A stretch of 64,000 bases of DNA from Gemmatimonadales bacterium (GCA_036555485.1 DATBLG010000005.1:902-64901); one strand, 5' to 3'; positions 32,762 through 36,468 are shown, numbered from the stretch's first letter. The notes: a model not told the origin generated them from the sequence alone. Made by a program: numbers and translations.

Positions 32762-33472
32762 CTAGAACAGCGCGCGGAACTCTTCTGCGAGCTTCGGGCC
32801 CTCTCCCGACTCCTCGTGTTTGAAGAACACGAAGGCGTCCTTCCACTCCTTGCCGAGCGTGTTCACCGACTCCGCCCACTGTTCGAGCTGCGGCTTCGCA
32901 TAGCCCTCATCACGCAGCCGGAAGTACCCGAAATCCGCCGTGGCGACGAGCGGCGTGTGCCCGGCGTCGGTATCAGCCACGCACAGCGCCGCATTGCCAG
33001 TGCGCAACGCGTCGTAGACGTCGTCGGCGAACCAGGAGTCGTGGCGAAATTCCCATGCACAGCGCAGATCGGCGGGAAACAACGTGAGCACATCCTTCAG
33101 CCGGGCCAGGTCCTTCTTGAAATTGGGCGGTAGCTGAAACAGGATGGGCCCGAGCTTGTCGCCCAGCGGTCGAACGGTCTCGGTGAAATAGCGCAGCGGG
33201 TCGTCCACGTCTCGCAGCCGGCCGATGTGGGTGATGCGCTGCGACGCCTTGAGGACGAACGTGAACCCCGCGGGGACGGCCTGGCTCCAGCCGGACACCG
33301 TCTTGGCGTTGGGCATGCGATAGAACGTGTAGTTGATTTCCACCGCGGAGAAGTGTTCGGCGTAGTACGGCAGCATCTTGGCGGCAGGGAGTTTCACAGG
33401 ATAAAACGTGCCCTTCCACTCCGGGAAGTTGTAGCCCGACGTGCCGACGTGAAGCCGCATCGGGAGGAGCAT
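32762..33472 (-). CDS. DUF72 (UPF0759) family protein
   Basis: Matches the DUF72 pattern (LHVGTSGYNFPEWKGTFYP, EINYTFYRMP). The start is 33472 or 33460. The longer track ORF to 33634 has an implausible N-terminus. Confidence 0.8.
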   Translation of the reverse strand: MLLPMRLHVGTSGYNFPEWKGTFYPVKLPAAKMLPYYAEHFSAVEINYTFYRMPNAKTVSGWSQAVPAGFTFVLKASQRITHIGRLRDVDDPLRYFTETVRPLGDKLGPILFQLPPNFKKDLARLKDVLTLFPADLRCAWEFRHDSWFADDVYDALRTGNAALCVADTDAGHTPLVATADFGYFRLRDEGYAKPQLEQWAESVNTLGKEWKDAFVFFKHEESGEGPKLAEEFRALF

Positions 33473-33575
33473 CGCGCGACCGACCGGCGACCGCAACCCC
33501 TCACCGGTTCGCCGTGGAGCCGCTATGTTCGGGTCGCGTCGGTCCGGTTCCACCTCTCGTACTCGGAGTCCGTCC

Positions 33576-33953
33576 ATGTTGAAGCCGTTGGGCATCATTC
33601 TCGTAATCGTTACGGCGCTCGCCGCTCCCGTCACGCTTCCGGCTCAGAACCTCCCCGCCGGCACGTGGACCGGCACCATGAGCCCGCCGACAGACGCCGC
33701 GGTGCCGGTGACGTTCGAAGTCTCCGGCAGTGGCGATTCGCTGGCCATATCAATGGTGCTCCCCACCGGCCAACGCGCGCCGTTCAACGAACTCCGGTTG
33801 GCCGACGGCAAGCTGCTGTTCCAATGGGCCGCCGGTCCCACGATCGTCAAATGCGATCTGGCCAAGCAGGAGAGCGGCGGGTTCAAGGGCCCGTGCACCG
33901 ACTCGGAAGGAATGACGGGCCAAATCGAGATGGTGCCCCCAACCAAGCCGTAG
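33576..33953 (+). CDS. Small exported hypothetical protein
   Basis: The ATG at 33576 gives a signal peptide (MLKPLGIILVIVTALAAPVTLPAQ). The product is 125 aa with two Cys. It ends 28 nt upstream of the peroxiredoxin gene. Confidence 0.6.
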   Translation: MLKPLGIILVIVTALAAPVTLPAQNLPAGTWTGTMSPPTDAAVPVTFEVSGSGDSLAISMVLPTGQRAPFNELRLADGKLLFQWAAGPTIVKCDLAKQESGGFKGPCTDSEGMTGQIEMVPPTKP

Positions 33954-33981
33954 CGCGGCATATATTGCGGAACAACCCCAG

Positions 33982-34584
33982 ATGAGGCTCGCATCGATGC
34001 GCCCTTCTGAACTGATTCCCCTCGGCCTCCTCCTGCTCGCCGCCCCGGTCGCGGCGCAGCAACCGACGGCCACACCCGCCCCTGCCCCGGAGCCGCTGCA
34101 GGTCGGGACCGTCGCGCCGGATTTCACCCTCACGGGCGCCACCCGGTACGGCGTCATTCGGGACCCGATCCACCTGAGCGATTTCAAGGGGAAAACCGTC
34201 GTGCTCGCCTTCTTCTTCAAGGCGCGAACACGAGGGTGAACGGTTCAAATGAACGCGTACCGTGATCAGTACGCGCAGCTCTTCAAGAACGGCCGCAACA
34301 TCGTGCTCGTCGCCATCAGTGCCGACCCCGACACCGCGCTGTACTCCTGGGCGCGGGATGCCGAGTTCCCGTTCCTGTTTGCCAGCGACACCGGGTCGGT
34401 AGTGGGCCGGATGTACGGGGCATTCTCGAGTCGCGCCTCACTGAACAACCGCAACCTGTTCGTGGTGGGACCCGACGGGAAGATCGCGTATCGCGCGACG
34501 CCGTTTCGGGAGATTGATCCCACAGCGTACGAAGAACTGGGGCAAGCGATCCAACGGCTCGCCCCCATAGAGCCGGGGAATTGA
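33982..34584 (+). CDS. Exported Bcp/PrxQ-type peroxiredoxin with an in-frame TGA at the peroxidatic Cys position (candidate selenoprotein; alternatively a pseudogene)
   Basis: Track ORFs 33982..34239 and 34249..34584 are in the same frame and separated only by the TGA at 34237-34239 plus 3 sense codons. The joined sequence reads ...GKTVVLAFFFKARTRG[TGA]TVQMNAYRD.... This aligns with the E. coli Bcp active site (as I recall it) FYPKAMTPGCTVQACGLRD. The downstream part also keeps Prx features (ISAD, NRNLFVVGPDGKI). Confidence 0.6.
34254..34275 (+). promoter_or_regulatory. Candidate bacterial SECIS hairpin
   Basis: cgcgtac (34254-34260) pairs with gtacgcg (34269-34275) around the loop cgtgatca, which contains GU. 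The stem starts 15 nt after the UGA. It can be extended by tgaa (34250-34253) pairing with ttca (34282-34285). Confidence 0.35.
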
Positions 34585-34591
34585 CCGAATA

Positions 34592-34617
34592 GGTGCGTGG
34601 TGGGTGGTGCGTGGTCC
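34592..34617. repeat. Heptamer array GGTGNGT x3-4 in the convergent intergenic spacer
   Basis: ggtgcgt ggtgggt ggtgcgt ggtcc lies between the peroxiredoxin stop (34582-34584) and the tlpA stop (34618-34620). It has partial complementarity to gccacccgccgcacc at 34625-34639. Confidence 0.5.
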
Positions 34618-35133
34618 TTATCGCGCCACCCGCCGCACCGCCGCCTCGATATCCTGATCCGCACCGAGGCCGGTATAGGCGACTTTCCCGGCGCTATCCA
34701 GCACCACCACGTAGCTCGTCGATGGAGCCTGGAAGGCGCGTACCGCCCGACCATTGCCATCCCACAGGATCCGAAACGGCATTGGGTGCCGCGCCAGGTG
34801 ACGCTTGATGCCTGCCTGACTCTGGTTCACCGCCACGGCGACCACGACGAACTCCACCTGGTCCCCAAAGCGCGCGTGCGCGGCTGCCATGCGAGGGAAC
34901 AACGCCGCGCACAGCGGGCACCACGTGGCCCAGAACTCGATCAGCACCGGCTTCTTCCCGATGATCTGACCGAGGGCCACCGGGCGACCGTCCAGGTCCT
35001 CGATCGTCACCGCCTCAGGTCTTGTGCCGATGGCGATGCCGATCGCATCGTCCTGCGCGACCACATGACCCGGTGTACCGAGCGCGACCGCCAGTACGAA
35101 GCACACCACGCACGCCACACCCCGCACCATCAT
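34618..35133 (-). CDS. TlpA/ResA-like periplasmic thiol:disulfide oxidoreductase
   Basis: The ATG at 35133 forms an ATGA overlap with the ccdA stop. It has a signal/anchor (MMVRGVACVVCFVLAVAL) and the thioredoxin motif FWATWCPLC. The product is 171 aa. Confidence 0.85.
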   Translation of the reverse strand: MMVRGVACVVCFVLAVALGTPGHVVAQDDAIGIAIGTRPEAVTIEDLDGRPVALGQIIGKKPVLIEFWATWCPLCAALFPRMAAAHARFGDQVEFVVVAVAVNQSQAGIKRHLARHPMPFRILWDGNGRAVRAFQAPSTSYVVVLDSAGKVAYTGLGADQDIEAAVRRVAR

Positions 35134-35852
35134 CACAACACCCTTCCCATTTGCACGAAGTAGTACTCGGCCATGAAGAGAAGTACCACGCCGGCCAGCC
35201 GTCTGATCCACGTCATCCACGGGCCAGGCCGGGGCAGCGCGGCCAGGGCTCCCGAAAACAACCCCACCGCGGCCAGCACGACGCTCATGCCGAGTGAGAA
35301 CATGAAGAGGTAGGTGAAGCCGAGCACCGCGCTGTGCGTGGTGGCGACCCAGGTGAGCACCGCCCCGAACGCCGGCGCCCCGCAGGGCGCCGCGACGATC
35401 CCCGACGTGGCGCCCAGCAGGAACACCGCCGGATACGATCCGCCCGACAGACCGGCGGCCCACCCGGCGAGCCGCTGGGGCGCGGCGACGGGGAACACGT
35501 CAAGCATCGCCAGCGCGAATACGAGCAGCAGGTTCCCGATCGCGAACCGCGTCCAGGGGTTCGAGGCCACCGTCCCGAACAGCGTCCCCGTCAGCCCCGC
35601 GAGGAGGCCCATCAAGGCGTAGAACGAGGCGAGCCCCAGGATGTACACGACCGTGCGCACGACCACGCGGCGGCGCGGAGCGTCTGGGCGCGCGCCACCC
35701 CCCAGCACTCCCGCCGTGATGGGGATCATCGGGTAAATGCAGGGATTGAGACTCGTGGCCACCCCCGCAAGGAACAGCAACGCGGCCGCGACGGGTGGGC
35801 TGTGCCGTAAGGCGTCGGTCAGGCCGGCGGCGAGCGCTGGCAAAAGCGGCAT
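35133..35852 (-). CDS. ccdA: CcdA/DsbD-family transmembrane thiol-disulfide electron transporter
   Basis: 239 aa with 6 or more TM helices. The motifs LNPCIYPMIP and APCGAP carry the two conserved Cys of the family. Confidence 0.85.
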   Translation of the reverse strand: MPLLPALAAGLTDALRHSPPVAAALLFLAGVATSLNPCIYPMIPITAGVLGGGARPDAPRRRVVVRTVVYILGLASFYALMGLLAGLTGTLFGTVASNPWTRFAIGNLLLVFALAMLDVFPVAAPQRLAGWAAGLSGGSYPAVFLLGATSGIVAAPCGAPAFGAVLTWVATTHSAVLGFTYLFMFSLGMSVVLAAVGLFSGALAALPRPGPWMTWIRRLAGVVLLFMAEYYFVQMGRVL

Positions 35853-35871
35853 GGTCGTGACAATCTACACC

Positions 35872-36468
35872 ATGGCCGACGGCAAACAGATCCACGACGA
35901 CCGACGAAGCCGCTGCGGATGGCTGGGCGACAATCCCCTGATGCTCGCGTATCACGACAAGGAGTGGGGGGTCCCCATTCGCAACGATGCGCGGCTCTTC
36001 GGCAAGCTGGTGCTGGATGGATTCCAGGCCGGCCTGTCGTGGGCCATCATCCTGCGCAAGCGCGCCGATTTTCTGCGTGCGTTCGACGGCTTCGATCCCG
36101 AGCGCATGGCCCGCTACGATAGCCGCAAGCGCCGCGCGCTCCTCGCGGATCCCGGCATCGTGCGCAACCGGCAGAAGATCGATTCGGCCATTGGCAACGC
36201 CCGAGCGTTTCTCGAGCTGCGAGACGCCGGAGTGCGATTCGGTCCGTTCTTGTGGGGATTCGTGGACGGGCGCACCAAGCACAACGCATGGAAATCGCTA
36301 CGGCGGCTCCCGGCCAAGTCGCGAGAATCTGAGCGCATGAGCAAGGCGTTGGTCGAGCGCGGATTCCACTTCGTAGGCCCGACAATCTGCTACGCGTTCA
36401 TGCAGGCGGTGGGGATGGTGAACGACCATATCGTGACCTGTTACCGCCACGACGAGCTGAAGCGGTAG
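35872..36468 (+). CDS. tag: DNA-3-methyladenine glycosylase I
   Basis: Matches Tag (CGWLGDNPLMLAYHDKEWGVP, LVLDGFQAGLSW). I prefer the ATG at 35872. An ATG at 35851 would overlap the ccdA start. Confidence 0.85.
   Translation: MADGKQIHDDRRSRCGWLGDNPLMLAYHDKEWGVPIRNDARLFGKLVLDGFQAGLSWAIILRKRADFLRAFDGFDPERMARYDSRKRRALLADPGIVRNRQKIDSAIGNARAFLELRDAGVRFGPFLWGFVDGRTKHNAWKSLRRLPAKSRESERMSKALVERGFHFVGPTICYAFMQAVGMVNDHIVTCYRHDELKR

Follow-up and report, generated by a model that had tools for sequence, protein, structure and literature searches.

A selenocysteine peroxiredoxin convergent with a tlpA-ccdA pair points to a probable envelope peroxide-reduction chain in Gemmatimonadota

The locus analysed here encodes a putatively exported peroxiredoxin (Prx) with selenocysteine (Sec) at its catalytic position, facing a gene pair for a TlpA-like thioredoxin and a CcdA-type membrane electron transporter. 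It lies in a 64,000-nucleotide stretch of DNA (the window), which represents contig C73 (65 kb) of a metagenome-assembled genome (MAG; 2.79 Mb, 74% complete, 67% G+C) of a soil Gemmatimonadales bacterium. The Prx gene (33982-34584, plus strand, 200 codons) is convergent with tlpA (34618-35136, minus strand) and ccdA (35133-35852, minus strand), and a small open frame (33576-33953, plus strand) stands upstream of it. All four genes sit where the initial annotation had placed them, at 33576-35852. That annotation proposed that electrons pass from CcdA to TlpA to the Prx for peroxide reduction in the envelope, rather than to cytochrome c maturation.

The Prx is PrxQ/AhpE-like and matches Pfam AhpC-TSA (PF00578) at 88.7 bits (cut-off 26, E=3.8e-25) over profile positions 1-123 of 124. 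Its N-terminus, MRLASMRPSELIPLGLLLLAAPVAAQQ, resembles a signal peptide of the secretory Sec type; as throughout this work, the call was made by eye from the N-terminus, with no predictor used. Read through an in-frame UGA (34237-34239, plus strand; residue 86, U86), the active-site stretch is AFFFKARTRG-U-TVQMNAYRD, with the UGA on the peroxidatic Cys of the PxxxTxxC motif. The nearest solved sequences are a BCP (2ywn) and AhpE (1xvw), and U86 aligns with their peroxidatic Cys; the catalytic Arg is also kept (the Arg within NNRNLFVV pairs with that of LAKRAVFVI in the 2ywn BCP). The description of the protein as an exported (Sec)PrxQ is upheld by the putative signal peptide, the AhpC-TSA match and the position of the TGA on the peroxidatic residue. 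A score of 59.4 bits on NF040737, whose cut-off is 270, places the protein outside the PrxU equivalogs. There is no cysteine anywhere in the protein and an external reductant would therefore be required.

The literal PxxxTxxC motif is not present in the window Prx, which reads F-KAR-T-RG-U: Thr is kept, Cys is replaced by Sec and Pro by Phe. Sec orthologues have Phe, Tyr or Ile at the Pro position (FF[F/Y/I]xxRTxGU; window 34210-34239, L007-L052, L136-L175), with two exceptions (L050, L052) in which the motif Pro occurs together with Sec. Among Cys variants of the same orthologous group, Pro is present in all 20 examined (FFPxxRTxGC). Despite the Pro to Phe change, the catalytic chemistry of the window Prx is plausibly kept.

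The UGA is confidently predicted to be a Sec codon. TGA occupies the same codon in 46 of 46 Gemmatimonadota orthologues, with coding sequence conserved on both sides, and a single TGA was scored in most of the Prx-positive genomes of the phylum sample described below. A hairpin resembling a Sec insertion sequence (SECIS) starts 14 nt past the UGA (34254-34275, plus strand), with a 7-bp stem CGCGUAC/GUACGCG and an 8-nt loop, CGUGAUCA. In the alignment six of its pairs are invariant and the seventh covaries (CG 25, UA 16, GC 1); pairing holds in 99% of cells and falls to 56% or less once the partners are slid. The loop has G at its second position and retains T-ending codons although the G+C content of third codon positions is about 85%. 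Folding of the single sequence past the UGA recovered the hairpin with a z-score of 0.59, which is not significant, so the case for it rests on the alignment. An Rfam scan of the window returned no family and no SECIS model match. The genome of the window encodes tRNA-Sec (contig C33) and SelB (contig C128; 340 bits vs a cut-off of 242); neither selA nor selD adjoins selB or tRNA-Sec.

Further Sec-Prx copies were also seen. A tandem pair lies at L052:5001-5600, and one genome has two copies 4 kb apart with one TGA each (G169:C2:15531-20808). The genome of the window has a second Prx with TGA at the peroxidatic position (C34:2400-2870, TGA at C34:2535), reading ALVFYPGNNTPG-U-NRQLSAVRD. This protein starts MSDVLQVGSKAPLF, without a signal peptide, and is a candidate cytoplasmic Sec-BCP.

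The tlpA product carries a WCPLC motif and is putatively exported or membrane-anchored, as judged solely from its hydrophobic N-terminus. It matches Pfam Redoxin at 61.7 bits (E=9e-17) and AhpC-TSA at 54.6 bits, and among solved structures ResA and the Etrx proteins of pneumococci come nearest to it. Its scores fall below the equivalog cut-offs of NF047696 (rhizobial TlpA, 34.9/230), PRK03147 (ResA, 61.7/170) and TIGR00385 (DsbE, 29.3/123). The protein is therefore classified as TlpA-like (cd02966) and is predicted not to be an orthologue of any characterised member. The ccdA product (239 aa) is a CcdA-type, DsbD-beta-like membrane thiol-disulfide electron transporter with a strong match to PF02683 DsbD_TM (136.9 bits, cut-off 27.1, E=7.9e-40). 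Both conserved Cys are present (NPCIYPMIP and AAPCGAPAF), and alpha and gamma domains are absent. Its match to DsbD (PRK00293) covers the middle of that protein, positions 169-378, and its type is closer to this central domain than to the classical CcdA of its own genome (28% identity).

The initial annotation described ccdA and tlpA as coupled through an ATGA overlap and convergent with the Prx gene. Coupling and convergence stand, with a different overlap sequence. On the minus strand the junction reads TTG-TGA-TGATG, and the ccdA stop (TGA, 35135-35133) overlaps either a GTG start at 35136 (4-nt GTGA) or an ATG start at 35133 (1-nt overlap, TGATG). The two genes are predicted to be translationally coupled. 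The stops of the Prx gene and tlpA are separated by 33 nt (34585-34617) holding a heptamer-like array, GGTGCGT GGTGGGT GGTGCGT GGTCC. A promoter and terminator scan of 33300-36100 found no sigma-70-like promoter, and no canonical terminator in the convergent gap.

The same neighbourhood was found across Gemmatimonadota. Among 45 informative Sec-Prx loci, tlpA-ccdA follows the Prx gene directly in convergent orientation in 32, and at one locus (L032) an inversion has put all three genes on one strand as ccdA>tlpA>prx. The flanks of the trio vary, with at least five recurrent contexts and many unique ones; examples are DUF72 / trio / Tag-UvrD and methyltransferase-DinB-DinB / trio / three other genes. 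In the commonest context, the genes beside the trio seem, on reading by eye, to encode a methyltransferase, a pair of DinB-like proteins, an NAD(P)-binding protein and a deaminase. They look like unrelated cytoplasmic proteins and were rejected as module parts.

A second set was centred on TlpA and comprised the best 80 TlpA-orthologue loci, each from a different Gemmatimonadota species (77 informative, 3 truncated). The ccdA gene lies directly upstream of tlpA in 69 of the 80, and tlpA adjoins a Prx gene in 60 of the 77 informative loci. In 49 of the 80 a Sec-Prx gene is convergent right after tlpA, within 9-372 bp, and in 11 a Prx-like gene follows tlpA on the same strand. Nine of these 11 belong to a different subfamily, canonical 1-Cys PrxQ (about 38% identical to the window Prx), with an AFYPKDFTSGC motif, a signal peptide and a single Cys. 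The Cys-type gene overlaps tlpA by 4 nt at some loci (L071), and at L130 the order is tlpA-prx-ccdA. An unlinked Sec-Prx was found elsewhere in 6 of 9 checked genomes with a Cys-type PrxQ operon. The same predicted reductant pair is therefore kept beside a putatively exported 1-Cys or 1-Sec Prx in three arrangements and with two enzyme subfamilies. Since the arrangement recurs in dozens of species-level genomes, it occurs far more often than expected by chance. The co-occurrence of Prx with ccdA-tlpA, which the initial annotation had named as a check, holds up: the genes stay together across the class even though their flanks change.

At two loci (L100:941-1972 and L108:4486-5046) the Prx-like gene after tlpA lacks the catalytic Cys, and at L100 the Cys-less domain is fused in frame to TlpA (343 aa). 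Either the Prx-like domains are degenerate or the assemblies contain frameshifts. Small convergent open reading frames (ORFs) after tlpA at Prx-less loci were considered as hidden peroxiredoxins and found to be unrelated proteins.

TlpA/ResA/CcmG-family proteins and CcdA classically serve cytochrome maturation or oxidase assembly (PMC8945050, PMC3322552), and the genome was searched for a separate machinery of this kind. Contig C73 has no ccm or res genes, and the genome has no ResB. CcmC and CcmF genes are found on contigs C91, C52 and C1, in two or three System I (Ccm) loci (C91:5500-12100, C52:25700-29460, C1:61000-63100). The C91 locus reads ccmABCEFGH, with a His-type CcmE (VMVKHSNEY), and contains a DsbE/CcmG-like thioredoxin which scores 100.8 bits on TIGR00385 vs 29 for the window TlpA and is 28% identical to it. 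On C52, a CcmE-like gene ending LAKCGSRYES (the Cys-type CxxxY variant) adjoins a second CcmF and CcmH. A second DsbD_TM gene (C112:881-1618) has classical CcdA motifs (SPCVLPLIP, TPCIGPILG), and each of the Gemmatimonadetes genomes examined, whether or not it had the window-type CcdA, carried an equivalent weak-scoring DsbD_TM paralogue. The C112 gene adjoins an arginase-family gene on a 2.6-kb contig; a 303-aa ORF beside it has no family and low complexity and is probably not a gene. A sole ccdA-tlpA pair with ccm genes adjacent beyond the window would have spoken against the earlier proposal, and this is not what the genome shows: the ccm loci lie on three other contigs, one of them has a DsbE/CcmG-like gene of its own, and a classical CcdA exists besides the window one.

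The distribution of these genes follows the same division. In the phylum sample of 201 genomes, 173 have a Prx homologue and 156 the window-type CcdA. Within the class, this CcdA occurs in 151 genomes, each of which is Prx-positive as well, and is absent from all nine that lack a Prx homologue; 22 genomes are Prx-positive without window-type CcdA. A discriminating set was formed by 12 high-quality genomes without window-type CcdA, all of which keep CcmF/CcmC and one classical-type CcdA. Five of these have a Sec-Prx, and all five have a TlpA orthologue (36-52% identity); in four of the five, tlpA is followed on the same strand by a Cys-type exported PrxQ and has no adjoining ccdA. The other seven have no Prx homologue and none has a TlpA orthologue (one weak match, 30% identity). 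As TlpA presence matches Prx presence and Ccm is kept throughout, TlpA tracks peroxiredoxins and not cytochromes. The five genomes with Sec-Prx and TlpA also imply that the window-type CcdA is not obligatory, being dispensable or replaceable. The TlpA-Prx link is the tightest in the putative module, with window-type CcdA as the usual but replaceable predicted donor, and the ccdA-tlpA pair is predicted not to be the cytochrome c maturation reductant.

CcdA, TlpA and the Sec-Prx quite probably form an extracytoplasmic peroxide-reduction chain across the inner membrane. The CcdA-TlpA-Prx path of the initial annotation is favoured by the linkage, by the separate ccm genes and by the discriminating genomes (TlpA in 5/5 with and 0/7 without Prx). 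Gene content, motifs, recoding signals, conserved linkage and phylogenetic co-occurrence were read directly from the genomes. In the proposed chain, the U86 selenolate of the exported Prx would attack H2O2 or an organic hydroperoxide, giving a selenenic acid. With no resolving Cys in the Prx, the N-terminal Cys of the TlpA WCPLC motif would attack the selenenic acid, and the second TlpA Cys would resolve the resulting Se-S mixed intermediate. Oxidised TlpA would be re-reduced by the CcdA-type transporter, which would draw on cytoplasmic thioredoxin and NADPH. Cytochrome c maturation would be served separately by the ccm operons with their own CcmG and probably by the second, classical CcdA. 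TlpA may have further clients, one of which in sister lineages would be the Cys-type exported PrxQ. Export, localisation, peroxidase activity and each electron-transfer step in this scheme are predictions from sequence.

Several observations weigh against this chain. Exceptions to tlpA-ccdA adjacency were counted at 12 of the 45 informative Sec-Prx loci, and 17 of the 77 informative tlpA loci have no adjacent Prx. The Prx gene and tlpA-ccdA are convergent and hence not co-transcribed. Much of the linkage is shared ancestry. In an evenly drawn distant-family sample of 20 Sec-type Prx genes and 20 Cys-variant orthologues, tlpA-ccdA was found near 14 of the Sec-type genes within 0.5 kb and near 16 within 1.5 kb, which speaks for the chain, but adjoined none of the 20 Cys variants, which bear signal peptides and have one Cys in the mature part. 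The Prx tree contains at least seven Sec/Cys changes but yields only three supported independent contrasts (sign test p ~0.5); these are too few to test Sec state against adjacency, and a correlation between the two is not claimed from the raw counts. The five high-quality genomes with Sec-Prx and TlpA have no window-type CcdA, and one complete relative (G001) has only two DsbD_TM genes, which makes a shared CcdA role possible. On the enzyme side, selA was not found in the genome of the window (a MAG that is 74% complete), and with Phe at the motif Pro position peroxidase chemistry is not guaranteed.

The last of these points bears on an unlikely alternative, that TlpA reduces the selenoprotein but that the selenoprotein is no peroxide scavenger. 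It could act on lipid hydroperoxides only, on sulfenylated envelope proteins or on selenium and tellurium oxyanions, or be a peroxide-driven oxidant or sensor feeding TlpA clients. Sec forms have Phe, Tyr or Ile in place of the "absolutely conserved" Pro of PxxxTxxC, which the Cys forms keep. Precedents also exist: Caulobacter PrxL is Prx-like with no detectable peroxidase activity, deletion of Caulobacter pprX gave no peroxide phenotype (PMC3322552), and plant lumenal PRXQ is reported not to reduce H2O2 (PMC3813922). However, the catalytic Thr, the Sec (for Cys) and the Arg all align with solved BCP and AhpE enzymes, tlpA of sister lineages is operonic with a fully canonical PrxQ (FYPKDFTSGC), and the link to a CcdA, itself reductive, speaks for a cycle of the reductive kind.

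It is improbable that the Prx is instead recycled by another donor, such as a small thiol or another exported thioredoxin receiving electrons from the classical CcdA, with adjacency reflecting common regulation or genomic inertia. The never-adjacent, signal-peptide-bearing Cys variants still need a donor, Sec-Prx occurs in genomes without window-type CcdA, and a third TlpA-like gene (WCDPC) was observed in the same genome on contig C51. Against this, TlpA orthologue presence equals Prx presence in 12 of the 12 discriminating genomes, tlpA remains beside Prx even where ccdA is gone, and TlpA is by experiment the direct donor of the Caulobacter enzyme PprX (PMC3322552).

That ccdA-tlpA is the usual reductant for cytochrome c maturation or oxidase assembly (ResA/CcmG-like, or like Bradyrhizobium TlpA acting on ScoI/CoxB) and the Prx an unrelated inherited neighbour is very improbable: the best NCBIfam match of the window TlpA is ResA (though far below its cut-off), and CcmG also needs a DsbD-family donor and complete relatives hold only two DsbD_TM genes, but the 65-kb contig is without ccm or res, a DsbE-like gene sits within the C91 ccm operon, the 12 genomes without window-type CcdA keep Ccm and a classical CcdA with the seven TlpA-less ones being exactly those without Prx, and the Prx linkage survives flank turnover, inversion and a swap to another Prx subfamily.

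The closest experimentally described counterpart of the favoured CcdA-TlpA-Prx chain is the envelope peroxide-reduction pathway ScsB->TlpA->PprX of Caulobacter crescentus (Cho et al. 2012, mBio, PMC3322552). There, TlpA was shown to supply the connection that had been missing from the membrane transporter to an exported enzyme of the PrxQ type, and DsbD's thioredoxin-like domain was able to take its place (PMC3322552). Both systems combine a DsbD-superfamily transporter, an exported TlpA-like thioredoxin and a signal-peptide-bearing PrxQ-type Prx, with TlpA as the direct donor in Caulobacter. They also differ. The window transporter is a bare CcdA (239 aa, transmembrane domain only), whereas ScsB has alpha and gamma domains. 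The window Prx has Sec for Cys, no resolving Cys and no motif proline. The window-type genes are physically linked across the whole class, and the system is known here from sequence alone. The window system is most likely a selenium and CcdA form of the Caulobacter-type envelope pathway, with a CcdA-only transporter and a 1-Sec, proline-less Prx.

In Streptococcus pneumoniae, CcdA->Etrx->MsrAB2 (PMC3914529) shares the first half of the scheme: in this species and in S. gordonii (SdbB in place of Etrx), CcdA supplies a TlpA/ResA-like thioredoxin at the cell surface, which works for an antioxidant enzyme and not for cytochrome maturation (PMC3914529, PMC7034828). The terminal enzyme is, however, a methionine sulfoxide reductase, and the hosts are Gram-positive with the proteins as lipoproteins. 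In chloroplasts, CcdA reduces the membrane-anchored TlpA/CcmG-like thioredoxin HCF164 in an oxidising compartment that also holds PrxQ (Motohashi and Hisabori, reviewed in PMC3813922), but the known clients of HCF164 are cytochrome b6f components and PsaN, and a link to lumenal PRXQ is not established.

On the enzyme side, Sec-containing peroxiredoxins (PF00578, TxxU) are a listed selenoprotein family (PMC13188914), with PrxU of Eubacterium acidaminophilum among them (Söhling et al. 2001, as listed in PMC13188914). As in PrxU-type proteins, Sec replaces the peroxidatic Cys in TxxU and a SECIS hairpin lies directly downstream. PrxU is thioredoxin-dependent according to NCBIfam NF040737; unlike it, the window Prx is putatively exported, has neither Cys nor the motif proline, and is linked to a putative reductant module of the envelope. 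The closest solved sequences (E ~1e-11 to 1e-12) are AhpE of Mycobacterium tuberculosis and archaeal BCPs (1xvw, 2ywn, 2cx3), and AhpE is likewise a one-cysteine Prx in need of an external reductant, but these enzymes are cytoplasmic and Cys-based with the canonical Pro. No published CcdA-TlpA-Prx module and no Gemmatimonadota selenoproteins were found in the literature searched, which is not proof of absence.

The small gene upstream of the Prx (33576-33953, plus strand) encodes an exported-looking protein of 125 aa with two Cys and, by eye, a signal-peptide-like N-terminus. Profile searches matched it to no Pfam or NCBIfam family. The initial annotation had counted it as part of the module, but among about 125 related loci its homologues occur in only two other genomes, at three loci (L008 and L056, which lie on one contig, and L054). 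It was rejected as a module member and is a neighbour, not a conserved component.

In the literature searched, the Caulobacter pathway of 2012 is the sole experimentally shown envelope peroxide-reduction pathway, and its physiological weight is uncertain. The same logic appears to be built in as a fixed set of genes throughout a whole class of bacteria that abound in soil. Sec-Prx thereby gains a concrete, testable candidate reductant, and the two CcdA paralogues would split by function between antioxidant defence and cytochrome maturation. The system is easily missed in annotation: gene callers break the Prx at the UGA, and tlpA-ccdA would tend to be named cytochrome c biogenesis because the Pfam description of DsbD_TM reads so. 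With Cys variants of the same orthologous group in sister genomes, it is also a natural system for studying what Sec gives a peroxiredoxin.

A wider proposal is put forward tentatively, and it is less likely than not to hold. The class Gemmatimonadetes would possess a near-universal, unannotated selenium-dependent envelope peroxidase, in which a cysteine-free 1-Sec Prx regains its reduced state by way of an intermolecular selenenylsulfide with a TlpA dedicated to it, which occurs only alongside exported Prx. The electrons of this TlpA would come from a DsbD-beta-like CcdA distinct from the classical one for cytochrome c maturation, and the switch from Cys to Sec would have come with loss of the "invariant" Pro and fixation beside the reductant genes. 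If this is true, soil selenium supply would set the envelope oxidative-stress tolerance of an abundant phylum.

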